DNA of 62,632 bases from an uncultured Pseudomonadota bacterium (GTDB taxonomy: Bacteria > Pseudomonadota > Alphaproteobacteria > Rs-D84): contig CASFOK010000018.1 in assembly GCA_949296475.1 (NCBI GenBank), positions 1-62,632 on the forward strand, given 5' to 3'. Both the position numbers and the translations under genes were made by a program. Below are positions 22,980-38,128 of this stretch, piece by piece (the first letter of the stretch is position 1; every line of letters starts with the position of its first letter). Under the pieces are notes generated by a model, which had not been told where the DNA came from, did no database searches, and worked only from the letters and a program-made list of their open reading frames with translations.

Positions 22980-23071
22980 TATATCGGTTGTTTTGGATAC
23001 TTGAAAACCACGGTTTTTATGTCGTGGTTTTTTTGTTGGACAAAAAACTTATGTTTTATTATCCTAAAAAT

Positions 23072-23491
23072 ATGTTAAATGGCGTACGAATTTTTTCTGG
23101 TGATCCTGTGTGGCGGCATATTTTAACCGAATTGGGCGCAATACTTACAGATGACAGCGATGCTGCTGATATAAATTTTGATGCTTTATGCATCAATTTG
23201 CCTATATCGCCGCTGAAATTGAAATCCATGATATTAAACGAAGCCGATAATAATAACGTGCTGACAAAAATATTTGGACGTATGGTATATTTGTCGCGAC
23301 TGCAAACGCAGATTATCACGCAGTTATATAAATCCGGTGGTATGGATATAAACGAATTGAAGTTGGCATTGGGGTATTTACCTGATACCACAACACATGC
23401 GGTGGAAACCGCCATTTATCAATTACGTAAATCATACGGGTATGATTTCATCAAAAACGATAAAGGAATATATAAACTTGGCAAATTATAA
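23072..23491 (+). CDS. OmpR-type winged-helix protein with degenerate N-terminus
   Basis: THAVETAIYQLRK..GYDFIK..KGIY; ORF-track start 22976 crosses a terminator (23004-23034), so ATG 23072 is preferred. Confidence 0.7.
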   Translation: MLNGVRIFSGDPVWRHILTELGAILTDDSDAADINFDALCINLPISPLKLKSMILNEADNNNVLTKIFGRMVYLSRLQTQIITQLYKSGGMDINELKLALGYLPDTTTHAVETAIYQLRKSYGYDFIKNDKGIYKLGKL

Positions 23492-24179
23492 GGTCATATC
23501 TTTTGATAAAATTTCCAGTACGCAAACATATGCCATTAATATGATTGCTGACGGCAGGGCAGGTGACCATACCGTCATAATGGCAGAGGCACAAACCGCC
23601 GGACGCGGTAGATATAAAAGACAGTGGGTTTCTCATCACGGCAATTTATATGCAAGTTTTATATACCATATAGAAGAAAGAGATCCAAAATTATCTTATG
23701 TGATTGCTGTCGCAATTGCAGAAAGCCTTATCGCTTTTGGTATCCGTCCAGAAATTAAGTGGCCAAACGACATTTTAATAGACGGTAAAAAGGTTTCTGG
23801 TACGTTGACCGAATACGCGGGAAATTTTGTAATCATAGGAATCGGTATAAACATAAAATCAAATCCAACCGTACAAAAATATCAAACGACCAAGTTAGAT
23901 AATTATGCAACAGTATCAAAAAATGATTTGTTGAATTTACTTATGAAAAATCTGGACAAATGGCGCAATGCAGATTTTCTGGAGGTGCGTGATTTATGGA
24001 TGAAACTGGCCGTGGGATTAAACAAGCAGGTAAAGTATCGCGGTGAAATGGTTGAATTAATCGGTATCAATGAACAAGGTGCGTTAATTTTACGTAGCGG
24101 CACAAAATATGTGCTGGCGTATGGCGATGAAATCGTAATGTCAGATTCATATTCGGGCGATTTAAAAATAAGGCCTTGA
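23478..24179 (+). CDS. birA: biotin--[acetyl-CoA-carboxylase] ligase
   Basis: QTAGRGR..R.W, KWPND, KKVSG, GIGIN; TTG start after AAGGA. Confidence 0.92.
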   Translation: MANYKVISFDKISSTQTYAINMIADGRAGDHTVIMAEAQTAGRGRYKRQWVSHHGNLYASFIYHIEERDPKLSYVIAVAIAESLIAFGIRPEIKWPNDILIDGKKVSGTLTEYAGNFVIIGIGINIKSNPTVQKYQTTKLDNYATVSKNDLLNLLMKNLDKWRNADFLEVRDLWMKLAVGLNKQVKYRGEMVELIGINEQGALILRSGTKYVLAYGDEIVMSDSYSGDLKIRP

Positions 24180-24204
24180 CTTTTTATGCAATTTATGATA
24201 CTAT
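24176..24204 (+). promoter_or_regulatory. promoter of virion gene cluster
   Basis: TTGACT-17-TACTAT with extended -10 TG. Confidence 0.6.
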
Positions 24205-24228
24205 ATGAAGCATTAAGAGTGAAATTTT

Positions 24229-24284
24229 ATTCGTAACATCTGTTACGAATTTTTTTATCCCGCGCGTTTTTGCGCGGTTTTTTT
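24229..24284 (+). terminator. two tandem terminator-like hairpins in the cluster leader
   Basis: ATTCGTAACA-TC-TGTTACGAAT plus T-run, then CCGCGC-GTTTTT-GCGCGG plus T-run. Confidence 0.65.
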
Positions 24285-24312
24285 ATTTCTTAATATCAAG
24301 GGTGAAAATATC

Positions 24313-24723
24313 ATGCAATTGTCGTTGATAAAAAAAAGTGACGAAACAAAAGCTGTTGCTTATGCGATTGCTAGGTTGGTGTACGCAGAGACGCGCGCAA
24401 GTTCTTTGCCAGCTGTTGAAGCGTTAACTTCAATGATAAACAACATATCTGTGTCTGCCGGGAAAAATTTTACAGAGATAATTTCTGATTCGGACATGTT
24501 TGAATCGCTGAATAAAGATTCGGACCATCATAAATATTTATCAACCGATGTTTCTAATCGCGGTTTTCAGATGTGCGTACGCGTTGTCAATCGTATGTTG
24601 CATGGTGCTTTACCAGATTCTTGCTGTGGTGCGACAAAATTTCATCGGGTTAACAGATTGCCCGATTGGGCGGTGGCGCGCGGATATATCGCTGATATAG
24701 ACGGTTTATTGTTTTATTTATAA
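24313..24723 (+). CDS. cell wall hydrolase, SleB/Hydrolase_2-like (putative lysin)
   Basis: ARLVYAETRA..., GATKFH...PDWA....IDGLLFY. Confidence 0.7.
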   Translation: MQLSLIKKSDETKAVAYAIARLVYAETRASSLPAVEALTSMINNISVSAGKNFTEIISDSDMFESLNKDSDHHKYLSTDVSNRGFQMCVRVVNRMLHGALPDSCCGATKFHRVNRLPDWAVARGYIADIDGLLFYL

Positions 24724-24733
24724 GAAGGTATCA

Positions 24734-24958
24734 ATGATAAGAAAAATTATTCAGGGCGGTTTTTTATCTGGTCACAGAACTTACATAATTTCTGGCATCG
24801 GCATTTTATCTGCAATCGGTGCATACCTGGTCGGTGACACAGATATATTTACTATGTTACAAGCAATCTTTACATTAGGTGGCATATATTTTTTAAGAAA
24901 ATCTAGTGAAACAAAAGGACGAAAACATGGAAAAAATTCCAGAAAAATTTCTAAATGA
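24734..24958 (+). CDS. putative holin
   Basis: Two short TM segments, G.RTYI motif, basic tail, next to lysin. Confidence 0.55.
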   Translation: MIRKIIQGGFLSGHRTYIISGIGILSAIGAYLVGDTDIFTMLQAIFTLGGIYFLRKSSETKGRKHGKNSRKISK

Positions 24959-25583
24959 AGACGGTACTTTAAATACAGACGCGTTGTTGAAATCTTATTC
25001 AGAACTGGAAAAGAAAATGAGTACGATGATTTCAATACCAACAGAAAATGCAGACGAAGCAACGCGCACAAAATTCAATCGCGCTATTGGCGTACCAGAT
25101 AATGCGAACGCGTATCCTGTCAGCCCGATGTTTGATGATGAAAATTTACGCGCACAATTTTTTGAAATCGGGTTGACTTCGTCACAAGTTGAAAAAATTT
25201 ATAAGATAGCAGAAGAATTTTTATCGCCTGTATTATCAGATTTATTTAGCAAACAAAATGAAACGAATGCGATTACAGAATTGAAAAATTTTTTCGGCGA
25301 CGAAGAAAAAATGATAGACGCATTACGTGCAATAAAATCGTTCGGTGAAAAATATTTACCGTCTGATGCGTTTGATTCGTTATGTTCTTCAGCCCAAGGA
25401 ATCCAAAGCGTTTACAAGATGATGCAATCAATGGAACCAAGTGTACGAACAGAAAAAAATTCATCAGAAATTTTAACAGATGATGTATTAAGAAAGATGA
25501 TGCAAGATCCAAAATACTGGCGCGATCAAGATCCAGAATACGTTCGCAAAATTGAAAACGGTTTTAAAAAGTTATATTCATAG
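24927..25583 (+). CDS. capsid assembly/scaffolding protein
   Basis: IPEKF..DG..N.DAL.KSYSELEKKM and MMQDPKYWRD.DP motifs typical of podovirus scaffolds. Confidence 0.75.
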   Translation: MEKIPEKFLNEDGTLNTDALLKSYSELEKKMSTMISIPTENADEATRTKFNRAIGVPDNANAYPVSPMFDDENLRAQFFEIGLTSSQVEKIYKIAEEFLSPVLSDLFSKQNETNAITELKNFFGDEEKMIDALRAIKSFGEKYLPSDAFDSLCSSAQGIQSVYKMMQSMEPSVRTEKNSSEILTDDVLRKMMQDPKYWRDQDPEYVRKIENGFKKLYS

Positions 25584-25686
25584 AAAAAATTGCACTTTCT
25601 TCTTTACTAATTTTTTTATTTAATATAAAATATAAATCAAGAACAAAAGAATTTGTTCTATCCAAAAAATAATAAAGGAGAGAAGA

Positions 25687-26025
25687 ATGGCATTCACATT
25701 CTTGAAAACGGCTGCAAAAAAACCTGCTGCTAAAAAGCCGGTTGCAAAGCCAGCTGCAAAAAAACCTGCTGCTAAAAAGCCAGCTGCAAAGAAACCTGCT
25801 GCTAAAAAAGTAGCGGCAAAAAAACCGGTTGCAAAAAAAGTAGCTGCAAAGAAACCAGTTGCAAAAAAAGTAGCAGCGAAAAAACCAGTTGCAAAAAAAG
25901 TAGCAGCAAAAAAACCTGTTGCTAAAAAACCAGTTGCAAAAAAAGTTGTTGCAAAAAAAGCGCCTGCTAAAAAAGTAGCGGCAAAAAAGCCAGTTGCTAA
26001 GAAAGCATGTGCAAAGAAAAAATAA
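25687..26025 (+). CDS. histone H1-like basic protein
   Basis: AAGGAG RBS; tandem [15 protein letters not shown] pentapeptides. Confidence 0.85.
25717..26001 (+). repeat. degenerate 15-nt tandem repeat encoding the Lys/Ala pentapeptides
   Basis: AAAAAA-CCN/GTA-GCN/GTT-GCN units. Confidence 0.85.
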
Positions 26026-26029
26026 TAAG

Positions 26030-26234
26030 TCCCCGCATTTGCGGGGATTTTCATTTATTAAATCCGCATTTGCGGATTTTTTTAAAAAATATTTAGTCAG
26101 ATTTTTCAAAACGTCTGACTGAATATTTTTCAAGACAATCCGTTCGTGGACCTTGGATATTTTTGTCGTATGGCGCAAAATCGCATAACCAGAAAACAAA
26201 ATATTAATCAGCGCAATTCATTTGCGTTTTTTTT
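26030..26234 (+). promoter_or_regulatory. hairpin-rich capsid leader with several terminator-like stems
   Basis: Two CCGCATTTGCGG-core hairpins (26030-47, 26060-79), 17-bp stem 26085-26130, GCGCAA/TTGCGT plus T-run before RBS. Confidence 0.55.
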
Positions 26235-26257
26235 AATCAATAAAAAGGAATGTATAT

Positions 26258-27088
26258 ATGTCTGTTTCCATAGATCAAGTCTTCGTAAAACAATTCGAAG
26301 CAGATGTTCATTTGGCTTATCAGCAAATGGGCACAAAATTGCGTGCGACGGTACGCAGCAAATCTGGTGTTGTTGGTGCGTCAACCACATTCCAAAAAGT
26401 TGGTCGTGGTACCGCCAGTACAAAATCGCGTCATGGTATTGTACCTGTTATGAACTTGAATCATGAACCTGTTGAATGCTTGTTGCAAGATTATTATGCA
26501 GGCGATTGGGTAGATGCCTTGGATGAGTTAAAAACAAACGTTGACGAGCGTCGTGTTGTTGCCTCTGCCGGTGCGTATGCATTAGGTCGCAAAACCGATG
26601 AATTAATCATATCCGCAATGAGCAACGCAACAGATTCTGTTGGCGATTATACCACAGGACTGACAAAAGATTTAATCTTGTCTGCCGTTGAAGAATTGAA
26701 TTCAAAGGATGTTCCTGATGATGGCAGAAGATTTGCGGTTGTCGGTGTTCATCAGTGGAACGAACTGTTATCAATGGATGAATTTGTGTCGGCAGATTAC
26801 GTCGGTAATGATTTACCTTTGGTATCTGGCGGGGCTTCTAAAAAATGGTTGGGCATTACATGGGTGTTGCATAATGGTTTGCCTGTATCAGACGACGAAC
26901 GCGATTGCTTTATTTATCACGCAACTAGCATAGGTCATGCTTGCGGGCAAGAAGTAAAAACGGATATTTCTTGGCACGGCGAACGTGCGGCGCACTTTAT
27001 CAGCAACAGTATGTCCCAAGGTGCTGTGTTGATTGATGACGATGGCATCGTACGCATTAAATGTCTGGATAAAGAAGAAACAATTTAA
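26258..27088 (+). CDS. major capsid protein (podovirus/BPP-1-like family)
   Basis: SIDQ.FVKQFEADVHLAYQ.MG.KLR, DYYAGDWVD.LDELK, ALGRKTDELII, VPDDGRRF. Confidence 0.85.
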   Translation: MSVSIDQVFVKQFEADVHLAYQQMGTKLRATVRSKSGVVGASTTFQKVGRGTASTKSRHGIVPVMNLNHEPVECLLQDYYAGDWVDALDELKTNVDERRVVASAGAYALGRKTDELIISAMSNATDSVGDYTTGLTKDLILSAVEELNSKDVPDDGRRFAVVGVHQWNELLSMDEFVSADYVGNDLPLVSGGASKKWLGITWVLHNGLPVSDDERDCFIYHATSIGHACGQEVKTDISWHGERAAHFISNSMSQGAVLIDDDGIVRIKCLDKEETI

Positions 27089-27109
27089 AGATAATCAAAG
27101 GATATTAAT

Positions 27110-27337
27110 ATGGCTTTTCAGAATAAAAACTTATCTGTAATTGCATATGCTAATGGTTTTACATTGTGGCATTATGCGGCAAAAGAAACTTTGGCAACGA
27201 TATCTGCATCTGGATATTTTAATAGTGTAAAGACGTTAATGAACGCAGGCGATGTATTGATTGTAAATGCATCTGATAATACATCTATTAAAAAAATTGC
27301 TGTATCGGAAAATGTGACAGTTGCCGATTTAGTTTAA
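27110..27337 (+). CDS. small capsid-associated (decoration-like) protein
   Basis: Directly after capsid; LSV.AYANGFTLWHY...GYFN motif. Confidence 0.55.
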   Translation: MAFQNKNLSVIAYANGFTLWHYAAKETLATISASGYFNSVKTLMNAGDVLIVNASDNTSIKKIAVSENVTVADLV

Positions 27338-27388
27338 TCATATAAAGGGCGGTTTTATTGCCGCCCATATTTTTAAAGGGGGTATAAG

Positions 27389-27907
27389 ATGCTGACAAAA
27401 ATAGATTTATGTTCTATGGCGTTGTTAAAATTGGGGGAAAAATCTATACAGTCCCTGGTAGACGATACGCCCGCCGCCCAACTAAGTCGTACGTTATTTG
27501 ATCCCGTGGTAGATGCGTTGTTGGCATCGCACCCGTGGCGGTTTGCGTGCAAAGAGTTTAATTTAACGAAAAATTCAGATGGTGATTTTTTGATACCTTC
27601 TGAATGTTTAAGAATCATTAAGTGCAGCGGCGAAATCATCGGTAATAAAATCATCACCGCGTCAGAAAATATAAATATTGTCGCCATTGTTCGCGTTCCC
27701 GTTGAAACGTTCCCGAGTTATTTTGTATCTTTGGCTGCCACAAAATTGGCAATGGAATTTTGTATACCACTAATTGGAGAGCAAACTGTTTTTAGAATGC
27801 TGGCGGCTTTATACGAAACGGAATTACAATCTGCAAAATTCATAGACAGTACAACCACTGTTAACCGTGACATTGATAGTTTTTCTCTGGTTAACGTGCG
27901 TTTTTAA
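27389..27907 (+). CDS. tail tubular protein A / adaptor (T7 gp11-like)
   Basis: IDLCSMAL.KLG...IQSL.D, LL..HPW.FA, FPSYF. Confidence 0.75.
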   Translation: MLTKIDLCSMALLKLGEKSIQSLVDDTPAAQLSRTLFDPVVDALLASHPWRFACKEFNLTKNSDGDFLIPSECLRIIKCSGEIIGNKIITASENINIVAIVRVPVETFPSYFVSLAATKLAMEFCIPLIGEQTVFRMLAALYETELQSAKFIDSTTTVNRDIDSFSLVNVRF

Positions 27908-27922
27908 TTGTGGGGGATTACA

Positions 27923-29638
27923 ATGGGGGATTTCATAAAAACACAAAATTCTTTTGCACATGGCGAAGTCGCACCAGAATTTTTTGCGCATGATAATATT
28001 AATGGTTTATCGCGACTGGAAAATATGGATGTCTTGGCAGGCGGCGGTTTGTCTCGGCGGCGCGGATTGCAGCATATTGCTGATTTGGAATCAAATGCAA
28101 GGCTTATCGCGTTTTCGGTCAGTGAAAATGAAAATTACATATTGGCTTTGAAAAACAAGATTATATCAGTGTTTTACCAAGGTGAGAAAATAAAAGATTT
28201 ATTTTCACCGTGGGCTTTTGATGATTTAACAAAGTTACAATATGCGCAACGTTTTGGTACCATAATTTTTGTACATCCGGATTACCAGCCTTATGTTTTA
28301 AAAAAAGAATCGGATGATTTTGCGTTATCAAAATTTGATTTTGCGCGTAATGACTCTGATATGACGGTTAATATGCCGTTTATGAAGTTTGACGATGCGG
28401 AAAACATAAAAATTACCGTGACAGCAAACGATGCAGGTAATAATTACGCTACGTTTACAACGAATGAAAATTTTTGGACGACAGATGATACAGAAGGGCG
28501 CTTTTTGTTATTGGATAAGCAGTGGACAATAACAGAATACATCAGTCCGACAGTCGTAAAGGCGCATACAAATGGAACGTACAGTTTGCCAAGCGGGGCT
28601 GTGTCGGATTGGCGCGAAGCGGCGTTCAGTAAAAAACGTGGTTGGCCGTGCAGCATTACTTTTCATCAAGATAGATTGGTCTTTGGCGGTTCGCGTTCTT
28701 GGCCCAGTGGTGTATGGCTTTCCCAGGTTGGTCGGCATAATAATTTTAATGTCGGTACCGGTTTAGACGACGAAGCAATATTTATAACGTTGCTGTCGCA
28801 ACAGCGACAGCAAATTTGCACAGTTGTCAGCAGCGATAATTTGCAAATTTTAACATCAGCGGGTGAATGGGCGATATCCAGTAAACCTTTGACGCCGTCG
28901 GCTGTGGATATAAAGCAACATACATCGGTTGGCAGTGTATCGCAAAGGTATTTGCCGCCGCAAAAAATAGAAGGCGCAACCGTGTTCATTTCTAGCAGCA
29001 AAAAAGACATTCGTGAACTGAGTCTTGACCAGTTGGGTGAAAATTATAATGCCACCGATTTGTGTGCGTTTTCAAAGCATTTGATGCAAGAACCCGTTGA
29101 CGTTGCTTATAACGAAGAAACGCGTCAGTTATTCGTTGTTATGCAATCTGGCGATATGGCTGTGTTAAACCAAAATTCTGCCTTGGGCATTTCTGCATGG
29201 GGCAGTTATAAAACCCAAGGCCAATTTAAATCCGTTGCTACCATAAACGGAGAGACTTTCGTCGTTGTTTATCGTGATGATGAGTTTTGTTTGGAAAAGT
29301 TTTCAGATTCTGTGTTACAAGACGGTGACAAATATGGATTTGCGTTTGTCGCGTCTGCGTTGCCCTTACGTGCATCAGGGCATAACGCAAACAAAGTCAG
29401 ACTACGAAAAATAATGGCGCGTGTTTTAAACACGAAGACTTTATTTATAAACGATATGCGGGCGGATTTGCCTAATGAAGTGTATTCTGCGGAATCAAAT
29501 GGTTATAGCGGCGACGTTTCTATAAATTTATTAGGCTTGCAAAGAAACTGCATGAATGCGCCTTGGACAATCAAAAGCAGTGAACAATTACCGGCAACGG
29601 TATTATCCGTGACGATGTACGGGTATTACTTGGTATAA
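27923..29638 (+). CDS. tail tubular protein B / nozzle (T7 gp12-like)
   Basis: QNSF..GEVAP, GGL.RR.G, W.E.AFS..RGWP..ITFHQDRL.FGG. Confidence 0.8.
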   Translation: MGDFIKTQNSFAHGEVAPEFFAHDNINGLSRLENMDVLAGGGLSRRRGLQHIADLESNARLIAFSVSENENYILALKNKIISVFYQGEKIKDLFSPWAFDDLTKLQYAQRFGTIIFVHPDYQPYVLKKESDDFALSKFDFARNDSDMTVNMPFMKFDDAENIKITVTANDAGNNYATFTTNENFWTTDDTEGRFLLLDKQWTITEYISPTVVKAHTNGTYSLPSGAVSDWREAAFSKKRGWPCSITFHQDRLVFGGSRSWPSGVWLSQVGRHNNFNVGTGLDDEAIFITLLSQQRQQICTVVSSDNLQILTSAGEWAISSKPLTPSAVDIKQHTSVGSVSQRYLPPQKIEGATVFISSSKKDIRELSLDQLGENYNATDLCAFSKHLMQEPVDVAYNEETRQLFVVMQSGDMAVLNQNSALGISAWGSYKTQGQFKSVATINGETFVVVYRDDEFCLEKFSDSVLQDGDKYGFAFVASALPLRASGHNANKVRLRKIMARVLNTKTLFINDMRADLPNEVYSAESNGYSGDVSINLLGLQRNCMNAPWTIKSSEQLPATVLSVTMYGYYLV

Positions 29639-29654
29639 AAAATGGAGGTTAATT

Positions 29655-30002
29655 ATGGGACAACTTGTATCAGATGTAACAGATATATTGGATTATAAGA
29701 AATCAAAAAAAGATGCAGAAACAGAACGTCAAAAAGTTCTGGCTGACATTGCTGCAGATGAAAAGACAAAAACTAACTTGGTAAAGAAAACCTTGGCCAC
29801 GCAACGTGCAAAATATGGGGCGTCTGGTATGTCCGGTCGCAGCATGACGGAAGGCGCCGTCTTAAAACGCTTGAAATCCGAAACCGAAGAACCATACGAA
29901 GAAAAAAAGCGTACAAATATAGAAAAATTGAAAAAAATAAAAGTAGAAAAACCGAATTTATTACAATCTTTGTTGGATAAATTTGAGGACTTAATTGGTT
30001 AA
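29655..30002 (+). CDS. putative internal virion/ejection protein
   Basis: Position after nozzle; QRAKYGASG motif; helical. Confidence 0.5.
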   Translation: MGQLVSDVTDILDYKKSKKDAETERQKVLADIAADEKTKTNLVKKTLATQRAKYGASGMSGRSMTEGAVLKRLKSETEEPYEEKKRTNIEKLKKIKVEKPNLLQSLLDKFEDLIG

Positions 30003-30016
30003 CGCAGGGGGCGCAC

Positions 30017-30565
30017 ATGTACAAGGTATCTTATGTCGCAGACGGTGAAACGTCCGAGTTTTTGTTTGTATTCCCTTTTTTTCAATCTGCGGACATTCGT
30101 GTATCTGTGGACGAGAAGATTCTTTCGGACACAGAATACGCGGTGATTCCAAATGAAGAATACGACGGTGGTAACGTTGTTTTCCCTGTGCCACCAGAAA
30201 AAGATGTTAAAATAGACATTTTCAGACAGGTGGCGCTGTCGCGTGTCATAGACTATCAACCGACGGCAAAAATAGACCCGGAAAATCTAAACGCAGATTT
30301 TAATTTTCTGTTAGAAGCGTTTAAAGATTTACATAAAATAGAGGTTGATGTAACAGAATGGGAAAATATACATGACAACGTTATGCGTTTTTTGAATTAT
30401 ACCTTGCAGGTAATAGAAGACAAGTTGTCTGGCGGAACAGTTCTGGGTTTATATAGTAATCTGTTATCTGTATTAGAAAACGCGCTGCCAAAACTTATAA
30501 ACGATTATGGCAGCATAACCGAAGAAGCACCAAACGAAAATCGCGATGATTACGGCGTTTTATGA
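30017..30565 (+). CDS. tail fibre N-terminal anchor protein (T7 gp17 N-domain-like)
   Basis: Y.ADG.T..F.F.FPFF..ADI.V.VD, GG.V.F..PP, LNADF. Confidence 0.7.
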   Translation: MYKVSYVADGETSEFLFVFPFFQSADIRVSVDEKILSDTEYAVIPNEEYDGGNVVFPVPPEKDVKIDIFRQVALSRVIDYQPTAKIDPENLNADFNFLLEAFKDLHKIEVDVTEWENIHDNVMRFLNYTLQVIEDKLSGGTVLGLYSNLLSVLENALPKLINDYGSITEEAPNENRDDYGVL

Positions 30566-31160
30566 TTTTTTAGACCAATGGAATGAAATATTGGGCCTGA
30601 ATACGCCGGCACATCATAAGCAAATTATGGATTTTTTGGTCTCTGTACTGGAATCCGAACCGCATCGTGGTTTATTAATGTCTTTCAGGCATTCTGGCAA
30701 ATCAACAGTAGTTGGTATTTTTGCCGCGTGTGTTTTGTGCTTGCGGCCAGAAACAAGAATTTTGATTTTGTCGGCGGAAAATAGTTTGGCGGCGCGCATG
30801 GTTGCACATATTAAACACATTTTGGAAAATCATCCCAGATGCTTGGATTTGATACCAGATGTAAAAAAAGAGTGGGCAAACGGCAGGATAACAGTTAACA
30901 GACCAATTGGCATTCGGGAACCGTCGGTTGTTTGCCAGGGAATACACGGTAACATTACAGGTATGCGCGCAGATTTAATCATTTGCGATGACGTAGAGGT
31001 CCCGAATACTTGTAACACTGCTAGCAAACGCGAAACGTTACGTGAAAGATTGCGAGAGCTAGATTTTATATTATCGCCAACCGGTACCATGATATACATC
31101 GGTACGCCACATACTATGGATACAATTTATAGAACAACACAAGACGACATGACAAACTAA
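30546..31160 (+). CDS. terminase large subunit, ATPase half
   Basis: Walker A FRHSGKST, GNITGMRAD, Walker B IICDDVE, motif III IGTPH. Confidence 0.85.
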   Translation: MITAFYDFLDQWNEILGLNTPAHHKQIMDFLVSVLESEPHRGLLMSFRHSGKSTVVGIFAACVLCLRPETRILILSAENSLAARMVAHIKHILENHPRCLDLIPDVKKEWANGRITVNRPIGIREPSVVCQGIHGNITGMRADLIICDDVEVPNTCNTASKRETLRERLRELDFILSPTGTMIYIGTPHTMDTIYRTTQDDMTN

Positions 31161-31826
31161 TTATTGTTGCGCTTCTTCTTGTTCAGATGGTTTGATTGCG
31201 GTAATTAACGAACGTAATTTCTTTAACAGTTCTGCACCAGCATCGCCAAAAAGTGGCAGGTAAGTTTCATATTCAGGCATGTCCGCTTGTAATTGTGCGC
31301 GTGTACGTTCAGACAAGGGTTGCCTTAATATATCGCTTGCAACGTTCCATAGGTGATATGCTTGGTAAGTTTTATCAACGATTAACCATTTTTCTAGTAA
31401 TTGCGGTTTGGCAGATAAAACAGAACGTATCGCGACCAACCATTGATTCCCGAATTTTTTTACAATTGATAGTTGTTGTAATTTGTGTAAGCCGTCTTCG
31501 TCAGGGGTGAATTCGTTTATACCTTTTTCCAGTTCGGTCCATTCGGCGTTCGTTAATGGTATCGTAGCAACAGATTGCGCCATCATACCGCCATAAGGTA
31601 ACAGGTCGCGTTCAATGGAATCCATCGGGGTTTTGCCGCTGCGCAGATTTTCAATGTGCTTTACCAAGTTTTTCCCGGTTGGTAATTCACGCAATTCTTT
31701 TAATATTTCAGGGGTAGATTCATTAATAAAAACTTGATTAACAGCCGCCCAACCACCAAAGATTACGTGTTCTTGGCGATAAAGATTTAATAATTTTTGC
31801 GCTGTTACGCTGGCTTTTATTTTCAT
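31161..31826 (-). CDS. hypothetical protein
   Basis: 221-aa ORF, GGGGGA RBS, downstream of the XRE regulator. Confidence 0.75.
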   Translation of the reverse strand: MKIKASVTAQKLLNLYRQEHVIFGGWAAVNQVFINESTPEILKELRELPTGKNLVKHIENLRSGKTPMDSIERDLLPYGGMMAQSVATIPLTNAEWTELEKGINEFTPDEDGLHKLQQLSIVKKFGNQWLVAIRSVLSAKPQLLEKWLIVDKTYQAYHLWNVASDILRQPLSERTRAQLQADMPEYETYLPLFGDAGAELLKKLRSLITAIKPSEQEEAQQ

Positions 31827-31853
31827 TTTGTCCCCCCTGTGTGCAAAAGAATA

Positions 31854-32858
31854 TTATTCCATTACAATCATGATGACTTTGTGCATGGTTTTTCCGATGA
31901 TTTTTTCTTCTGGTGATACGATTTGACCGTATGTTTTGCCCTTGGAATCTTGGCGAACAACAACGACTTGTGCCGTGGCCGTATCATCGGCTTTCATCGT
32001 TTCAAAGTCTGTATCAATGCATACCGCCAAGTCGCCGACAGATACTGTTGCCTGCGAATCCACAAAAACATAAGATTTTTCAGGTATAAAACCGCCCAGA
32101 CGTTTAGAGTTTGGAATAACAGCGTACATGCCGGAACGGCCTTCTAGCGGAACCGGTGCGACAATCATGGTTTCGTCAGATTTTTTAAACGTCAGCGCCT
32201 TCCCGGCAGGCGTTGCAAATACAGGGATAAGTTTTTTACGTGCGCTGTCGTACAATTTTGCACCATAAAAACTGCTGTGATCAATGCCAGACATGGGGTT
32301 GCTGGGGATTAGGACGGATTTTACGCGTTCGGTAACCTTGTTTATTTGTTTGTTTAATTCGCCTGATTTATATAAATCTGCGATTTTATCAAACAAGGCT
32401 TCCGCGGTATAACCAAAGGAATTTGCCAAAGGTTCTATTTCGTTTTGATAAATTTCGCGTTGCCCAACTTCTATCTTGTGGTATACGGACAAGGTCATAC
32501 CTGCGTCTTTTGCAGCCTGAGCGATAGTTTTACCTGCTTGTTGGCGGACCTTGCGTAATCCGCTGCCAAATATTTTTAATCCGCTGTCCTCGTTGTCATT
32601 CAAGCGTCGCTTTATTTCCGTTTGCCATTGGTTTGCGACGTCATCTGATTCTTTGATGAAAATGTCTGATAACTTGCAACCTAATATATTACATATGTTC
32701 AATAATTGTTTTTGGTTCAAGCGACGAACGCCTTTTTCTATCTTGGACACGGCGGATAAAGACAAATTTGCCTGACGGGCCAGCGCGGTCATTTTCATGC
32801 CGCTTGCCAAACGGATGTTTCGTATGTTGTTTGGAAAGATTATTTCTTCTTGGGCCAT
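31854..32858 (-). CDS. tandem XRE-HTH regulator with degenerate S24-like C-terminal domain
   Basis: Two HTHs (LSLSAVSKIEKG, MTLSVYHKIEVG); AAGGAG RBS before ATG 32858. Confidence 0.85.
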   Translation of the reverse strand: MAQEEIIFPNNIRNIRLASGMKMTALARQANLSLSAVSKIEKGVRRLNQKQLLNICNILGCKLSDIFIKESDDVANQWQTEIKRRLNDNEDSGLKIFGSGLRKVRQQAGKTIAQAAKDAGMTLSVYHKIEVGQREIYQNEIEPLANSFGYTAEALFDKIADLYKSGELNKQINKVTERVKSVLIPSNPMSGIDHSSFYGAKLYDSARKKLIPVFATPAGKALTFKKSDETMIVAPVPLEGRSGMYAVIPNSKRLGGFIPEKSYVFVDSQATVSVGDLAVCIDTDFETMKADDTATAQVVVVRQDSKGKTYGQIVSPEEKIIGKTMHKVIMIVME

Positions 32859-32924
32859 TCTGAATCTCCTTGCACTTATTGACAAATATTAGTTAATTTT
32901 CACAGAATAGGCAAGTATAAAATG

Positions 32925-34475
32925 TTATAAAGGCATATCGTCTGGAATATCGTCGGGATTAATGGCCACGGTGTCAGAATCTTGGGCGGGTAAAGTCTGC
33001 GTAGGGTTATCAATAAAATCTGGAACGCCCCTTTCCGCCATTTCATCCAGGTTATCAAATAAACTGTAATCGCCAAAGAACGCCAGTCGCACAGTTTCAG
33101 GGCGACCATGTCTGTTTTTACCAATAATGACGTCCGCCTTACCGCGTGCACGTTCCAGACGTTTTTGATAACTTTCAATAATTTTGTCGGTTGCGTTACC
33201 AGATATTCTTTGCGATGGGTCGCGATTTTCAAGATAATATTCTTCGCGGTATGTAAACATTACAATGTCAGCGTCTTGCTCAATAGAACCAGATTCGCGC
33301 AAGTCCGCCAGTTGCGGTCGTTTATCGTCGCGTGATTCAACGCTGCGCGATAATTGCGACAGCGCAATCACCGGTACGTCCAGTTCTTTGGCCAACATTT
33401 TCAGGCCGCGCGTAATTTCAGAAATTTCTTGAACGCGGTTATCGTTGCGCTTTCCGCCGGGTGATGTCATCAGTTGTAAATAGTCAACAACAATCAGGGC
33501 GATACCGCCACACTTACGTGCCAATCTTCTTGCGCGCGTTCGCATCATCGGGACGGACATGCCGGGGGTGTCGTCTATGTACAAAGGAACCCGTCCAATC
33601 GCGTCGGAATATTGCGACATTTTAAGAAAGTCTTCATCTGTCAAAGATCCTTCGCGCATGGCGGTTGCAGGAATCTTAGACTGCGATGATAATACGCGGG
33701 CCGCCAATTGCGAGTGTGACATTTCAAGACTGAAAAACACCACCGCCCCTTTATACTGTTCGTTTGCGCGTCCGTAAAGAATAGCATTCGCAGCGTTAAA
33801 AGCGATATTCATTGCCAAAGTCGTTTTTCCCATCGCGGGTCGTCCTGCAATGATTATCAAATCAGAATGGTGCAAGCCGCTGATTGATTTATCCAACGCC
33901 GTTAAACCCGTTGTTAAACCGGATAATTTTCCATCGGCTTTATATGCAATTTCCGCTTCCTTCAAGGCGCTTTGCAATGCAGTTGCGATAGATGCTACTT
34001 CGCGTTCGGATATGCCCGCGGACGCCATTTCAAACAGTTTTTGTTCCGCGGTTTCTATTTGCGCGGATACAGGGTTGTCTAAATCTTCAACAAACGCCGA
34101 ATCTGTGATAGATTGACCCAAGTTTATCAAGTCGCGACGTAACGCGTTTTCATAAACAATGCGTCCGTATTGTTCAACGTTGACGACGGTTGCACCGGCC
34201 CCCGCCAATTGTGTAAGGTATTCAACGCCGCCGACGGATTCCAAAGTACCTTGTTGTTCAAGGTAATTTTTAGCGGTGATTATATCAAACGGTATTCCCG
34301 CAGCAAACTGCTTTTCAGCCAATTTGTATATTTCTTGGTGTGCGGGGTGGTAAAAATGTTCAGGACGTAAGAATTCTGATACGCGTTCCAACGCGCGATT
34401 GTTCATCAGAACAGCCGCCAAAACAGCCTGTTCAGCCTCTAAGTTAGTCGGCAAAGTTTTGGGAGTAAAGTCCAT
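32925..34475 (-). CDS. dnaB: replicative DNA helicase (host type)
   Basis: P.NLEAEQAVL, GRPAMGKT, FSLEM, VDYLQL, LSQLSR, LRESGSIEQDAD, KNRHG. Confidence 0.97.
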   Translation of the reverse strand: MDFTPKTLPTNLEAEQAVLAAVLMNNRALERVSEFLRPEHFYHPAHQEIYKLAEKQFAAGIPFDIITAKNYLEQQGTLESVGGVEYLTQLAGAGATVVNVEQYGRIVYENALRRDLINLGQSITDSAFVEDLDNPVSAQIETAEQKLFEMASAGISEREVASIATALQSALKEAEIAYKADGKLSGLTTGLTALDKSISGLHHSDLIIIAGRPAMGKTTLAMNIAFNAANAILYGRANEQYKGAVVFFSLEMSHSQLAARVLSSQSKIPATAMREGSLTDEDFLKMSQYSDAIGRVPLYIDDTPGMSVPMMRTRARRLARKCGGIALIVVDYLQLMTSPGGKRNDNRVQEISEITRGLKMLAKELDVPVIALSQLSRSVESRDDKRPQLADLRESGSIEQDADIVMFTYREEYYLENRDPSQRISGNATDKIIESYQKRLERARGKADVIIGKNRHGRPETVRLAFFGDYSLFDNLDEMAERGVPDFIDNPTQTLPAQDSDTVAINPDDIPDDMPL

Positions 34476-35322
34476 GTCTGATATAGTATATAAAAATTTT
34501 CTTTTTTCAACGCCTTTTTTATCTGGATACCGTAAATTAAAAATACCAATAGTTGACGCCGACGGTAAACCGGCTTGGCCGGAATTGTTCCCAATAGAAC
34601 GAATAGAAGAGGTCAGAAAAACCGTTGGGGACAGATATTTTTCTGCGCAGATGATGTTGACTTTTGTTGCGCCCGACAGGGCGCGCCTGGACCCAGATTC
34701 GTTACATTTATACGATGCAGATTTTGACGGTCGCAGTGCTAAAATAGGCGATTTTTTAATAACCGGGGTGACTGCTTATTGGGACCCTTCGTCCGGCAGG
34801 AAAAAGTCGGACGGCAGCGTATGCGTTTTAATGTACCGGGACGATAAGAATAAACTGTTTTTCGTTCATGATGTGCAGTATTTATTAGTACCCGACGAAG
34901 AAACACATCCTTTGGCGCGTCAGTGTCAAATGGTGTTGGATTTTTTGTCTAAACATTCGCTGCACAGAATTTATATTGAAACAAACGGTTTAGGAAACGC
35001 CTTGCCCGAGATTATGCGTACGGTCGTCAAACAGCGCGGTGTAAGCATACAAATAAACAAAGTTTTCAATCACGAAAAAAAAGAAACAAGAATCCTAGAA
35101 AACATAGAACCCGTGTTAACGACTGGGCGTTTGTATGTTCATCGTCGTGTTCAATCCACGCCTTTATTATCAGAAATGTTGGGTTGGTCGCCTATTGGCA
35201 ACATCGGTCATGATGATGGTCTGGATGCGGTTGCCGGGGCTATTTCTGCGTTGCCGGCACCCATCAGGCCGTTCGGGCAGATAATGCAACCTTTCAAAGC
35301 GAATACTGATTTCAAGTTATAA
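34474..35322 (+). CDS. terminase large subunit, nuclease half
   Basis: AWPELF, F.AQMML, WDPS, IETNG.G, HDDGLDA; GGGAG 8 nt before ATG 34474 (ORF track starts at 34399). Confidence 0.8.
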   Translation: MSDIVYKNFLFSTPFLSGYRKLKIPIVDADGKPAWPELFPIERIEEVRKTVGDRYFSAQMMLTFVAPDRARLDPDSLHLYDADFDGRSAKIGDFLITGVTAYWDPSSGRKKSDGSVCVLMYRDDKNKLFFVHDVQYLLVPDEETHPLARQCQMVLDFLSKHSLHRIYIETNGLGNALPEIMRTVVKQRGVSIQINKVFNHEKKETRILENIEPVLTTGRLYVHRRVQSTPLLSEMLGWSPIGNIGHDDGLDAVAGAISALPAPIRPFGQIMQPFKANTDFKL

Positions 35323-35341
35323 CAACGCAAAAGGAGAAAAA

Positions 35342-36565
35342 ATGCAAAATAATCTACAACAAATGTATCGTCGCGCCTTAGATTTGCGCGCGCCTTGGTT
35401 AAATAGGTGGGATAGTGCGTTGCGCTATACGATGCCAACCGCAGATGATGAGGTGGCCACGTTATTTGATGCAACTGCTGCTGATGCAGTAGATAACTTG
35501 GCTGCATCAATATATTCTTTGCTTACGCCACCGGAATCTTTATGGTTATCGCTGGTGCCGGAAAGTGAAGATTCGCCAGACGCTATTACTGCAACAATGG
35601 CATTACGTGCGAACTTAAACGATTCTAATTTTTACACGACTATTCATCAGTGTTATTTAGACCTTGTGATTTTAGGTACTGCATGTTTATTTATGTCGGA
35701 AAATCCGATTGGTGCGGATTCTGCGTTTTCTTTTACTGCCATACCCATGAAAGACATAGCGATATTGCAAAACGCAGTATTTCATACGACCAGTATGTCT
35801 GCACGCGAAGTCATGGAAAAATATCCGTCTTGGACGCCGCCTGCCGATATTCGTGACGCCATCAAGAAAGACCCAGAAACGCCGATACGATTGGTACAGA
35901 GTCTGGTCGGTAAAGATTTTACCGCATGGTTAGACGTTGGCGGTAATATAGAAAACAACATTGTATCAACGGGGACGTTTGAAACGAATCCGTATTTAAT
36001 CTTTCGTTGGTCTGTCGCCAGCGGCGAGTTATATGGGCGCGGTCCTGTATTGCGAGCGTTGCCGGATATCAAGACCGCCAATAAAGTCGTAGAATTGGTA
36101 TTAAAAAACGCAACCATTGCAGTATCTGGTATTTGGCAAGCAGACGACGACGGTGTAATAAACCTTTCAAATATAAATTTAACGCCAGGAGCAATTATAC
36201 CAAAAGCGGTTGGCAGTTCAGGTCTGACGCCGTTATCGTCTGGTGCAGACTTTGACGTTTCGCAGATAATATTAAAAGATTTACGCGAACGTATTCGCCA
36301 TGCGCTACTTGCGGATAGACTGGGGCTGTTGTCGGAAAAAGAGATGACCGCGACCGAGATAATGGCGCGTAACGCGGACATGATGAGAATATTGGGCGCA
36401 ACGTATGGTCGTTTGCTGCATGAGTTTATTAGACCGTTATGTGAAAGAGGTCTGCAGATATTATCTCGTCGTGGGGTGATAGATAAGATATCTTTGCATA
36501 GCGATGCAGAATTGAAGTACATAGCGCCGATAGCACAGATGGCAATAGAAGAAACATTATTATGA
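35342..36565 (+). CDS. portal / head-tail connector (T7 gp8-like), compact
   Basis: FD.TA.DAV.NLA, DLV.LGTA, RW..SGE.YGRGP..ALPDIKT, MTATEI..R, LGATYGRL. Confidence 0.88.
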   Translation: MQNNLQQMYRRALDLRAPWLNRWDSALRYTMPTADDEVATLFDATAADAVDNLAASIYSLLTPPESLWLSLVPESEDSPDAITATMALRANLNDSNFYTTIHQCYLDLVILGTACLFMSENPIGADSAFSFTAIPMKDIAILQNAVFHTTSMSAREVMEKYPSWTPPADIRDAIKKDPETPIRLVQSLVGKDFTAWLDVGGNIENNIVSTGTFETNPYLIFRWSVASGELYGRGPVLRALPDIKTANKVVELVLKNATIAVSGIWQADDDGVINLSNINLTPGAIIPKAVGSSGLTPLSSGADFDVSQIILKDLRERIRHALLADRLGLLSEKEMTATEIMARNADMMRILGATYGRLLHEFIRPLCERGLQILSRRGVIDKISLHSDAELKYIAPIAQMAIEETLL

Positions 36566-36771
36566 CAAAGGTGGCTATTATGAAAGACATAGAGCAAAAT
36601 TATGCGCGTACATTTTCAACGTCAGCGGGGCAGGCCGTGTTGTCACATTTACGCAAAATAACCATAGAAAGAGTACTTGGACCGAACGCCAGTGATTCAG
36701 AACTTCGCGGTCTAGAGGCACAGCGGGCCTTGGTACATCAGATAGAAAACATGATAGAGCGGGGCAAGTAA
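36562..36771 (+). CDS. small portal-linked protein (Bbp19-like)
   Basis: Y.RTF.T.AG.AVL.HLR....LE.QR.LV..I pattern after portal. Confidence 0.6.
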   Translation: MTKVAIMKDIEQNYARTFSTSAGQAVLSHLRKITIERVLGPNASDSELRGLEAQRALVHQIENMIERGK

Positions 36772-37031
36772 TGTCAATGCAGTACGGCGGCGCGACGGGA
36801 ATATTGGACTTTCTGCGAGACAGTTGGTTTCTTATCGCGTTTATTGCAGGCATGATATATTGGGTCGCACGTCAAGATTCTTCACTGGCGGAACTAGAAC
36901 GCGCAGACCACCGGATAACCACGTTGGAAAACAGAACGACTATACTAGAAACGGGTATAGGACAGTTACAAATAAAATTAGACGGCATAAAAGAAGACGT
37001 CGGTTTAATCAAGACGGCGGTTATAAAATGA
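36771..37031 (+). CDS. membrane-anchored coiled-coil protein (holin/spanin-like)
   Basis: One TM helix plus heptad repeat; TAATG coupling. Confidence 0.55.
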   Translation: MSMQYGGATGILDFLRDSWFLIAFIAGMIYWVARQDSSLAELERADHRITTLENRTTILETGIGQLQIKLDGIKEDVGLIKTAVIK

Positions 37032-37035
37032 AAAA

Positions 37036-37062
37036 AATCCCGCGATTGCTTCGCGGGATTAA
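37036..37062. terminator. terminator ending the portal operon
   Basis: AATCCCGCGA-TTGCT-TCGCGGGATT. Confidence 0.75.
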
Positions 37063-37066
37063 ATCC

Positions 37067-37216
37067 TTAACAACCGCCGGTTGCGTTACCGATGATTTTA
37101 GAAATAGAAATATCTTTGTGGAATAAGAAATCGTATTCGCAATTTCCTTGTTTATAAGAACCAGTGCAGGCCGCCAACGTTAATACGGCAAACAACGCCA
37201 ACATAATTTTTTTCAT
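37067..37216 (-). CDS. small lipoprotein, YhfL/DUF4223-like (missed by ORF track)
   Basis: MKKIMLALFAVLTLAACTGSYKQGNCEYDFLFHKDISISKIIGNATGGC; AAGGAG RBS. Confidence 0.75.
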   Translation of the reverse strand: MKKIMLALFAVLTLAACTGSYKQGNCEYDFLFHKDISISKIIGNATGGC

Positions 37217-37282
37217 ATACTTTCTCCTTTTTCTTATAAGTAGACTTTTAAATTATAAGATTAATTGGTGATGTTTGCAAGA

Positions 37283-37627
37283 TTATATTGCGCCTTGAAT
37301 CCACTTCATTTTATATGGGGTAAAGACGATGACGTCAAACCTGGCATTACCGGTCCAATGTATCTGAGCCAAATATGTTTCTGCGGCATTGTGTAGACGT
37401 TTAATTTGTGCGCGGGTTATGGCGTCCAAGGCGTTTTCAGTATTATTTCTTTTTTTCACTTCAACGAACAGTATTAAATTGTGTCGTTTTGCGATGATGT
37501 CAATTTCTGCTCTATTGGAAAAGCGCCCGGTTACGTATCTTTTTTTCAAGATGTGGAAACCGTGTAATCGCAAATATATTCGCGCGCATAATTCAGTGAA
37601 TAAACCGACACGATAAGAATTCATCAT
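37283..37627 (-). CDS. yraN: YraN (UPF0102) family protein
   Basis: EIDIIA, LFVEVKKR, RFDV. Confidence 0.88.
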   Translation of the reverse strand: MMNSYRVGLFTELCARIYLRLHGFHILKKRYVTGRFSNRAEIDIIAKRHNLILFVEVKKRNNTENALDAITRAQIKRLHNAAETYLAQIHWTGNARFDVIVFTPYKMKWIQGAI

Positions 37628-37672
37628 GTAAAGAATTATAAAACAAAACCGAAAATAACAAAAGGATAAAAA

Positions 37673-38128
37673 ATGTCAAAGCAAATACAGATAAGACGAG
37701 GCAGTGCGACGGAACACGAAGACTTCACGGGTGCGCTTGGCGAGGTTACGATGGATACGACGAATAAAACGTTGCGCGTACATGACGGGGAAACGGCGGG
37801 CGGCATAGCCATTGCCAAACAGAATGAGTTGGATAATATAAAAAATTATTTATTAAAAATAGATTTAGATTGGGATAATAAAATTGATTGTGCTAGTACA
37901 GTCAATATAACTATTAATAAAAGTGGTTTTATGTTGTGTCGTGGTTCTACATATTCTTTAGATTGGGTGGAAGCAGATTTTAAAACAGAAATATTACGAG
38001 AGTATATATTATCTAATAACTACACAACAGTTTGGGCACCGGTTTATGAGGGACAACATCTTAAACAACGTCAAAAATCTGAATATAGCACCTCTTTTTT
38101 TATACCGTACAAAAGTATTTCAGAATAA
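37673..38128 (+). CDS. fibre protein with BPP-1 Mtd-like N-terminal domain
   Basis: QIRRGSATEHEDFTGALGEVTMDTTNKTLRVHDGETAGG. Confidence 0.75.
   Translation: MSKQIQIRRGSATEHEDFTGALGEVTMDTTNKTLRVHDGETAGGIAIAKQNELDNIKNYLLKIDLDWDNKIDCASTVNITINKSGFMLCRGSTYSLDWVEADFKTEILREYILSNNYTTVWAPVYEGQHLKQRQKSEYSTSFFIPYKSISE

Follow-up and report, generated by a model that had tools for sequence, protein, structure and literature searches.

The window analyzed here is a stretch of 62,632 nucleotides (GenBank assembly GCA_949296475.1, contig CASFOK010000018.1) from Candidatus Enterousia, an uncultured gut alphaproteobacterium of the GTDB order Rs-D84 with a genome of 882 kb that is 97.7% complete. Phage-type genes span 24.3 to 38.1 kb of the window, between the host gene birA on the left (end 24179) and a low-GC island on the right (from 38120). 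Sequence comparisons indicate that this cluster is probably a domesticated short-tailed particle system of the T7 supergroup, inherited vertically in Rs-D84, kept under purifying selection, and most likely resembling a gene transfer agent (GTA). Every GTA property that can be checked on sequence was found: no replication, integration, or excision genes were found in the cluster, it descends vertically, it is under selection, and the genes of the system are dispersed. The predicted products form a lysis module (endolysin and small membrane protein), a head module (scaffold, capsid and its 75-amino-acid [aa] partner, portal, and Bbp19-like protein), a short-tail module (adaptor, nozzle, fiber anchor, and replaceable Mtd_N-type tip), and a two-piece terminase motor.

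Phage structural genes interleaved with host genes

Families were named from Pfam and PHROG profile matches to open reading frames (ORFs) and, for terminase piece 1, from a PDB alignment (Table 1). A sequence-only reading of the window had proposed a GTA derived from a short-tailed phage at this place, and all of the genes that it listed there are indeed ORFs. It had put the cluster directly after birA, which ends 133 bases before the lysin gene, and had seen host-type genes among the phage genes; Pfam matches bear this out for dnaB (PF03796), the H1-like gene (PF07382), and yraN (PF02021). Its report of no integrase, polymerase, primase, or small terminase also stands, since no ORF between 24.3 and 38.1 kb matched any such family in Pfam or PHROG. 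Other details fell away. The single terminase gene is two ORFs with three minus-strand host genes between them; the names holin, decoration protein, and small ejection-like protein had been guessed from size and position and are without family support; and no yhfL-like gene was identified in the analysis.

Elsewhere in the genome there are three tyrosine-recombinase matches, all on contigs other than that of the window. A search for plasmids gave no match above 25% identity, and an Atlas search confirmed the family membership of the capsid and gave nothing beyond it. The DNA uptake genes for ComEC (a 769-aa open frame) and DprA are kept in this 0.88-Mb genome.

Presence, order, and loss of the cluster in Rs-D84

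The capsid gene was detected in 295 of 328 Rs-D84 genomes (211 of the 224 high-quality ones) and in 28 of 30 genera, and the portal gene was detected in 37 of 41 relatives. Within the genus, all 80 loci agree in gene order, birA flank, and upstream host genes over the length that each covers. One arrangement recurs in every one of the 75 loci that extend to terC, the gene for the second terminase piece: terN, the gene for the first piece, is followed by the opposite-strand block u221-HTH343-dnaB and then by terC. Both terminase/host junctions are bridged by independent contigs of three other samples; this comparison used assembled contigs, whose depth says nothing on over-replication or packaging and whose uncovered stretches carry no meaning. 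In other Rs-D84 families, the cluster has different neighbors and is still intact.

The absence of the capsid was traced in 20 of the 33 capsid-negative genomes. Ten of these look like assembly gaps, one verified (G164, in which the contig stops at the capsid gene) and nine probable: dnaB is missing too from G090, G119, G244, G264, and G293, it lies at contig ends in G059, G078, and G255, and the contig of G301 ends after the dnaB block. Two more genomes, G113 and G302, are too incomplete to judge. The dnaB block is present and the phage genes are absent in G160 and G294, and birA stays in place in G160, where the phage genes are deleted; HTH343 likewise remains beside dnaB in cluster-less genomes. 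G291 has lost the segment from the capsid gene through most of terN, G295 retains only fragments of the scaffold gene and terC, and 1 of the 80 same-genus loci, L079, has lost the segment from the middle of the adaptor gene to the start of terN (L079:11187-11986). The cluster is therefore dispensable and decays if it is not kept, which makes its intact state elsewhere more telling.

As natural deletion variants, L079, G291 (L294), and G295 (L296) are ready-made comparison lineages, and the sister lineages without the cluster form a natural test bed.

Purifying selection and congruence with the host tree

Median pairwise ratios of nonsynonymous to synonymous substitution rates (dN/dS) were 0.06 to 0.27 for all 14 phage-derived genes tested, a set that leaves out the H1-like and Mtd_N genes and that comprises 54 to 81 species-level copies; these values are rough, because dS is near saturation, and are still far from 1. 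The medians were taken from up to 400 random pairs per gene, retained if dS was 0.05 to 2, which left 62 to 382 pairs. For comparison, the host genes dnaB and birA gave 0.070 and 0.164, respectively. The reading frames are also open: stop-free high-scoring segment pairs (HSPs) covering at least 80% of the query were found for portal in 70 of 70 copies, for terC in 75 of 75, for the adaptor in 80 of 80, and for the capsid in 78 of 81.

A tree of concatenated capsid, portal, adaptor, scaffold, and terC sequences from 18 genomes of six families recovers the taxonomic families. It has 13 of 15 splits in common with the rpoB tree, and the two differing splits are unsupported. The rpoB topology was not rejected by the structural alignment (difference in log likelihood of 0.40; approximately unbiased test, P = 0.473). 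The sequence-only reading had named presence and synteny, tree congruence, and dN/dS below 1 as checks of its proposal, and each of them came out as it expected, the last for every structural gene tested.

Enterousia RpoB (gene at G000:C1:40031-44131) is only 45 to 54% identical to the RpoB proteins of other Rs-D84 families and of other Alphaproteobacteria, and the capsid is 66 to 73% identical within the order. By these identities, the capsid is more conserved than RpoB across these fast-evolving lineages.

A large terminase in two pieces throughout the order

The 204-aa terN product aligns to residues 30 to 216 of T7 gp19 (E = 2e-22) and ends three residues later, and the 282-aa terC product contains an RNase H-like nuclease domain of the T7 type. 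Real phages have one annotated terminase gene that both halves match. The halves are separate ORFs in every Rs-D84 family examined. They are 166 to 335 bp apart in families f2, f4, and f5; the portal gene lies between them in family f3; terC was not seen within the 20 kb fetched for family f6; and in family f1, which is that of Enterousia, they stand 3.3 kb apart around the genome's only DnaB-family match. That dnaB gene is the sole DnaB_C match in this 97.7%-complete genome, where no other replicative helicase was found. Outside Rs-D84, all 16 loci holding both halves have them contiguous and in one frame, and ORFs of 493 to 501 aa were seen in each of three genomes examined. Because the halves are contiguous outside the order, the split reads as a derived trait common to the whole of Rs-D84. 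A terminase working as two genes across an order would be unusual for a viral packaging motor.

The catalytic residues of both pieces are preserved. The GKS, DDxE, and GTPH motifs of terN (read here as Walker A, Walker B, and C-motif, respectively) do not vary in any of 11 sequences from six families, nor do the acidic residues D104, E169, D247, D248, and D251 of terC in any of 10. These invariant ATPase and nuclease residues therefore indicate that DNA packaging is under selection, and they speak against a role in lysis only.

In structure prediction, a complex of terN and terC reached an ipSAE of 0.90 in all three runs, versus 0.00 for the best control, with at least 76% of the contacts common to the runs and a partner predicted local distance difference test score (pLDDT) of at least 76. 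When the method was calibrated, the mark was reached by 58 of 80 solved complexes and by 2 of 110 mismatched pairs. The model would insert the first strand of terC into the ATPase sheet of terN. Because solved one-chain terminases exist, such a pass probably signifies likeness to them, not binding, and carries little weight here. A split intein was considered as an explanation of the two pieces and rejected, since terN ends three residues past the T7 gp19 alignment and leaves no room for an intein half. A group I intron may be a further possibility for the families with gaps of 166 to 335 bp; in Enterousia, three opposite-strand genes occupy the gap.

The ATG of terC (34474-34476) overlaps the ATG of dnaB on the opposite strand (dnaB start, 34475). 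This overlap implies that the terC promoter lies inside the first dnaB codons or else that an upstream TTG at 34399 is used.

A second, unlinked locus is lost together with the cluster

In other Alphaproteobacteria, two small genes lie between an S24 repressor gene and the portal gene. The Enterousia homologue of the first is a 116-aa gene on another contig, C1, between yidC and a TrbI-like gene. An adjacent 129-aa gene appears to match the second by a C-terminal motif seen by eye, at a similarity too low for a tblastn E value of 0.01. The 116-aa gene was found in 36 of 38 capsid-positive relatives, and both exceptions are at most 72% complete. It is absent from the cluster-less genomes G160, G294, G295, G034, and G037, and it is retained in the gap-type genomes (the five with dnaB missing, the three with dnaB at contig ends, and G164). 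The 116-aa gene is thus co-lost with the cluster though unlinked to it. At least one further locus, that of the 116-aa and 129-aa genes on C1, therefore belongs to the system, and the genes of the system are dispersed.

The 116-aa protein has no Pfam or PHROG match, and its confident AlphaFold model (pLDDT of 88.3) has no PDB fold match (best E = 2.9); these family and fold searches support neither a small-terminase nor a regulator identity. Type IV secretion-like genes, namely, those for a T2SSE/VirB11-like ATPase, a VirB8-like protein, and a TrbI/VirB10-like protein, adjoin this second locus (G000:C1:31736-33991) and flank the cluster on both sides (window 17080-18075 and 44000-44701).

Related clusters elsewhere in the Alphaproteobacteria

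We surveyed 298 other Alphaproteobacteria drawn evenly from the class. Capsid matches with an E value of 1e-10 or better were found in 63 of them, 46 of which were 50 to 69% identical; the capsid gene is single copy in nearly all, in genomes of 0.9 to 6.5 Mb. Among the matches listed, presence or absence agrees in 17 of the 18 families with two sampled genomes. In the 26 class-level loci that were fetched, the gene set is unchanged and follows canonical phage order, from an S24 repressor and two or three small genes through portal, Bbp19, scaffold, capsid, the 75-aa gene, adaptor, and nozzle to fiber, one-piece terminase, and lysin.

Host DNA is often inserted in these loci, and the portal gene was missing from 13 of 20 loci in one set. 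In each of the five genomes checked, a single intact portal gene lies elsewhere, the distances to the capsid gene being 15, 22, 73, and 153 kb and 1.5 Mb. The extreme case is G606, with portal at C1:717700-719124 and capsid at C1:2214387-2215205, each intact and single copy. The nearest tyrosine recombinase is more than 140 kb away in three of four complete genomes and 22 kb away in the fourth, and the cluster of G434, the only one with its flanks scanned, sits directly between the pyrD and lysS neighborhoods. For the same-genus pair G453 and G606, dN/dS was 0.03 to 0.05 for capsid, adaptor, nozzle, and terC, although dS exceeds 2 for the last three, so that only the capsid and 75-aa values are reliable. 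In a 34-taxon class tree, the Rs-D84 genes form one clade (support, 100), and 20 of 31 splits, including large groups, are common to the rpoB tree.

The sequence-only reading had called the system independently domesticated. Domestication itself is supported; it is probably not special to this lineage, because many other Alphaproteobacteria have homologous clusters with no integrase close by. From this small sample, we conclude with moderate confidence that domestication predates Rs-D84.

Of 184 viral relatives in IMG/VR, none of the best 80 is a contig longer than 20 kb, and the nearest capsid of an isolated phage is that of pelagiphage EXVC031P Hodr (OQ414635), at 45% identity. The two large genes (783 aa and 1,247 aa) that Hodr has 3' of its nozzle gene are lacking in the clusters described here. 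A capsid with 64% identity is encoded on MT838907.1 (L105; 5,084 bp), a contig from a fecal virome labeled "Bacteriophage sp." Its genes run canonically, with portal, Bbp19, and scaffold ahead of capsid, the 75-aa gene, adaptor, and nozzle. The contig belongs either to a genuine relative among phages or to the cluster of another alphaproteobacterium recovered in the virome fraction.

The fiber tip and the glycan island form a replaceable cassette

The Mtd_N-type gene is alignable at its N terminus only among the same-genus genomes that carry it. It is followed by a low-GC (28 to 30%) island with genes for GT2, pyruvyl-transferase, GT1, and GT2 (window 37673-42137, counted from the tip gene). 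For contigs of two other samples, X2 (99% identical) and X5 (approximately 94%), the match to the window breaks off at base 37812, some 47 codons inside the tip gene, and the X5 contig continues with 3,430 other letters beyond that base. The Mtd_N-type gene and the glycosyltransferase island are thus a replaceable cassette, in which the C terminus of the tip is swapped together with the island. This linked swapping suggests how particles would stay aimed at kin.

Gene-by-gene features

The features of the locus are collected in Table 1. The 82-aa helix-turn-helix (HTH) protein upstream of birA is 47 to 51% identical to the N terminus of the 209- to 218-aa S24 (LexA/CI-type) repressor that adjoins the portal module in other Alphaproteobacteria; its dN/dS is 0.039, and it lies upstream of the cluster in every same-genus locus reaching that far. 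The endolysin gene also occurs in other Rs-D84 families and in the class-level clusters, and homologues of the 74-aa protein (dN/dS, 0.118) adjoin the lysin in families f4, f5, and f6. The 75-aa protein is conserved in the order, the class, and pelagiphage Hodr, as is the place of the Bbp19-like gene 3' of portal. The fiber anchor aligns to the N terminus of the 363- to 708-aa fibers of class-level clusters.

Between the scaffold and capsid genes, families f1 to f4 have 0.7 to 1.3 kb of extra genes and family f5 has none. In other families, the gap is empty or is filled by an H1-like gene or by genes for multi-pass membrane proteins. Within the H1/HC2-like gene of the window, the matches to contigs from other samples skip and step back, which suggests variation in repeat number.

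Table 1. Features of the Enterousia particle gene cluster and its flanks (window positions)
Feature	Position	Strand	Evidence and remarks
Cro/CI-type HTH protein, 82 aa, likely cluster regulator	22731..22979	+	PF13443 HTH_26, E 5e-4
171-aa ORF, genus-conserved	22976..23491	+	No Pfam/PHROG match; syntenic in genus; dN/dS 0.245
birA-type biotin ligase, host flank	23397..24179	+	PF03099 (BPL_LplA_LipB), E 3e-17
Endolysin	24313..24723	+	phrog_938, E 3.7e-8; dN/dS 0.265
74-aa small hydrophobic protein, possible holin (guess)	24734..24958	+	No family match; hydrophobic stretch by eye
Scaffold, T7 capsid assembly protein family	24906..25583	+	PF05396, E 3.4e-9; dN/dS 0.207
Lysine/alanine-repeat H1/HC2-like protein, between scaffold and capsid	25687..26025	+	PF07382, E 1.9e-19
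Major capsid protein	26258..27088	+	PF19821, E 1.9e-71; dN/dS 0.061
75-aa protein, always 3' of capsid gene	27110..27337	+	phrog_18004 (unknown function), E 1.3e-12; dN/dS 0.101
Tail adaptor, tail tubular protein A-like	27389..27907	+	phrog_394, E 1.1e-32; dN/dS 0.154
Tail nozzle, tail tubular protein B-like	27908..29638	+	phrog_376, E 6.6e-79; dN/dS 0.176
115-aa charged protein	29655..30002	+	No family match; 80/80 HSPs intact in genus; dN/dS 0.173
Fiber N-terminal anchor, 182 aa only	30017..30565	+	phrog_1640, E 3.4e-13; weak PF03906
Large terminase piece 1 (terN), ATPase core	30546..31160	+	PF03237; T7 gp19 alignment; dN/dS 0.101
221-aa host gene (u221), dnaB block	31161..31826	-	No family match; stays with dnaB where phage genes are absent
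343-aa protein (HTH343), two HTH_3 domains, dnaB block	31854..32885	-	PF01381, E 1.3e-19; dN/dS 0.076
dnaB	32925..34475	-	PF03796, E 5e-100; PF00772
Large terminase piece 2 (terC), lid and RNase H-like nuclease	34474..35322	+	PF22530, E 6.4e-10; PF17289; dN/dS 0.174
Portal, T7 head-to-tail connector family	35342..36565	+	PF12236, E 4.2e-81; dN/dS 0.070
Bbp19-like small protein	36562..36771	+	PF25181, E 3.9e-11
86-aa protein, hydrophobic N-terminal stretch (by eye)	36771..37031	+	Weak phrog_736; genus-conserved; dN/dS 0.122
yraN/UPF0102, host gene	37283..37627	-	PF02021, E 1.6e-19; position varies within genus
Mtd_N-type fiber tip	37673..38128	+	PF18454, E 2e-15; phrog_9648 tail

A model for the particle and the points that weigh against it

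The retained portal, scaffold, capsid, terminase, tail, and lysis genes point to DNA-filled particles that would be released by lysis. From these genes we infer particle production, the packaged content, and DNA transfer, as follows. The cluster would be switched on in part of the population, possibly via the conserved 82-aa HTH protein, and proheads would assemble on portal and scaffold. The terN and terC proteins would associate as one ATPase-nuclease and fill the heads with host DNA, with no sequence-specific small subunit. Lysin and membrane protein would release the particles, whose fiber tip would bind a surface glycan of related cells; the nozzle would then deliver the DNA to the periplasm, and ComEC and DprA would take it in for recombination. 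Four features fit this nonspecific packaging of host DNA and its delivery to the periplasm of kin: no small terminase is recognized, the large post-nozzle proteins of the nearest isolated phage are missing, ComEC and DprA are kept, and tip and island are swapped together. That bacteria with genomes below 1 Mb, stripped of most biosynthesis, still keep about 11 kb of selected phage genes argues that the particles pay their way.

A wider reading is tentative, and we regard it as possible. The cluster may belong to a second ancient family of domesticated particles in the Alphaproteobacteria, besides RcGTA, and this family would be T7-derived and short-tailed, often scattered, largely vertical across the class, and without an integrase nearby. 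The Rs-D84 version, with its unique two-piece terminase, which in Enterousia encloses the only dnaB, would move host DNA between kin and would rely on ComEC and DprA for entry because the large post-nozzle proteins are gone.

Several observations weigh against a GTA-like system. The dS medians are 1.0 to 1.7, near saturation. At the class level, 11 of 31 splits differ from the rpoB tree, some of them with support, so that some horizontal movement outside Rs-D84 is possible. Of 10 same-genus genomes, only 4 yielded the Mtd_N-type tip. The system is dispensable, as seen in the losses of G160, G294, G291, and G295 and in the g10 genomes, which lack the cluster, and 13 of the 224 high-quality genomes gave no capsid match. 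The split terminase could mean a crippled motor, and the joint working of its halves rests on prediction. No small terminase was recognized with Pfam or PHROG among the locus ORFs or in the 116-aa gene of the second locus, and the 783-aa and 1,247-aa proteins of Hodr are without a counterpart here, which makes delivery across the envelope harder to explain. A head of the size usual in phage relatives could hold the whole 14-kb locus, in which case the classical GTA property of a packaged piece smaller than the coding locus might fail. Finally, the particles, their packaged DNA, and its transfer are predictions from gene content, and cells this small may themselves pass virome filters.

Alternative explanations

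The best-surviving alternative, which we consider unlikely though it deserves serious attention, is a domesticated particle kept for a purpose other than general gene transfer. Such a particle might (a) package mainly its own neighborhood, including dnaB or the variable glycan locus, in the manner of lateral transduction or of the amplified region of the Bartonella agent BaGTA; (b) deliver DNA or a killing hit to a partner organism on which these reduced bacteria may depend; or (c) serve programmed lysis and DNA release. All of the evidence for domestication fits this explanation equally well, whatever the packaged content. The position of the tip gene beside the glycosyltransferase island, both of them replaced together in near-identical strains with the break at 37812, is in its favor, and Rs-D84 bacteria have been proposed to depend on partner cells (PMC12306168). 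However, the invariant terminase residues indicate that packaging is selected, which argues against the lysis-only version; the different neighbors in other families mean that no particular neighboring cargo is conserved; and ComEC and DprA, kept in the same small genome, fit uptake by kin.

It is very improbable that the cluster is a decaying prophage remnant, free of selection of its own, that merely seems conserved because it is wedged between the essential genes birA and dnaB in a genome that seldom rearranges. The interleaved host genes, the terminase broken in two, the several lineages that lost or truncated the cluster, and the want of a small terminase and of any counterpart of the phage's large post-nozzle proteins would suit a remnant. 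Linkage, however, cannot hold dN/dS at 0.06 to 0.27 over 54 to 81 copies, nor can it hold portal and terC open in every copy. The catalytic residues are invariant over six families with rpoB 45 to 54% identical to that of Enterousia, the cluster is intact beside other neighbors in other families, and its genes are deleted or fragmented where selection evidently lapsed. The co-loss of an unlinked gene argues in the same direction.

Least credible of all is a working temperate podovirus that lysogenizes repeatedly at a preferred site beside birA: the full set of structural and lysis genes, the CI-type HTH gene upstream, the many such stretches listed as viral in IMG/VR, and the fecal virome contig with the same genes in canonical phage order would suit it. 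However, the locus yielded no integrase, excisionase, or replication gene, the host's only dnaB stands between the terminase pieces in every same-genus locus reaching them, and across six families the structural genes diverge in step with rpoB. In addition, the best 80 of the 184 IMG/VR contigs all stay within 20 kb, and the nearest isolated phage is distant in its capsid.

Comparison with known systems

The GTA-like reading of the Enterousia cluster can be set beside known phages and GTAs. The searched literature, mostly open-access main texts, yielded no description of the cluster, so an earlier report is possible; the main text of a study of Rs-D84 biology (PMC12306168) is without mention of phage, capsid, or gene transfer.

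As in T7-like phages, the locus has a T7-type portal, scaffold, tail tube proteins, and large terminase; it differs from them in that no polymerase or replication genes of its own and no large internal core proteins are present among the locus ORFs. With Hodr, which represents the T7 supergroup with BPP-1-like accessory genes, it has portal, Bbp19, scaffold, capsid, 75-aa protein, adaptor, nozzle, and a fiber with a T7-type N terminus in common. Hodr has a 34-kb phage genome, with 783-aa and 1,247-aa genes between nozzle and fiber and about 25 kb of further genes. Enterousia has none of those genes, and its nozzle gene is followed by the 115-aa ORF and then the fiber anchor; in addition, its genes run in a permuted order (lysin-scaffold-capsid...terminase-portal), with host genes among them and the terminase in two pieces. 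BPP-1 carries a reverse transcriptase in a diversity-generating retroelement that acts on its Mtd tip. Such a retroelement is not available to the Mtd-type tip of Enterousia, because the genome has no match to reverse transcriptase PF00078; this tip varies instead by replacement of its C-terminal part.

BaGTA (Bartogtaviriformidae) is also alphaproteobacterial, co-diverges with its hosts, is interleaved with host or other phage-derived genes, and resides in host-associated bacteria with small genomes. A published BaGTA gene table has a 1,344-bp terminase gene adjoining a 1,863-bp portal gene, followed by genes of 840 bp and 1,119 bp (PMC3610622). The Enterousia portal (1,224 bp) and capsid (831 bp) genes differ in size and stand in another order, and it is by this description of gene size and order that the two are set apart; one published test for BaGTA-like elements is homology to the BaGTA TerL and capsid within 5 kb of each other (PMC9662315). 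BaGTA is also linked to an origin of run-off replication, a module that was not seen in the Enterousia locus.

A podovirus-like GTA-like element, FpGTA, has been described in Faecalibacterium by Borodovich et al. 2026 (PMC12946183), who call it the first of its kind from the human gut and the first to have this morphology. A short-tailed GTA is therefore no longer without precedent (PMC12946183). FpGTA belongs to another phylum (Bacillota) and comes with experimental packaging data, whereas the Enterousia element is known from its genes.

RcGTA (Rhodogtaviriformidae) resembles the Enterousia system in organization: it too is made of structural, packaging, and lysis genes of phage origin, lacks genes for replication and integration, is inherited vertically under purifying selection, and occupies more than one locus. 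Its source was a long-tailed phage, and its head has a PF05065 capsid and a prohead protease, whereas T7-type parts and a two-piece terminase are found here. By its capsid, the Enterousia cluster is not RcGTA-like, as the HK97-type family PF05065 had no match in the genome and was detected in the control genome, Caulobacter. Entry of DNA carried by RcGTA needs uptake genes of the ComEC/DprA type, and the hosts of both systems keep ComEC and DprA. Very few GTA families are known, and their origins are debated; if the reading proposed here is true, this one is T7-derived and, by the class survey, possibly old and widespread.

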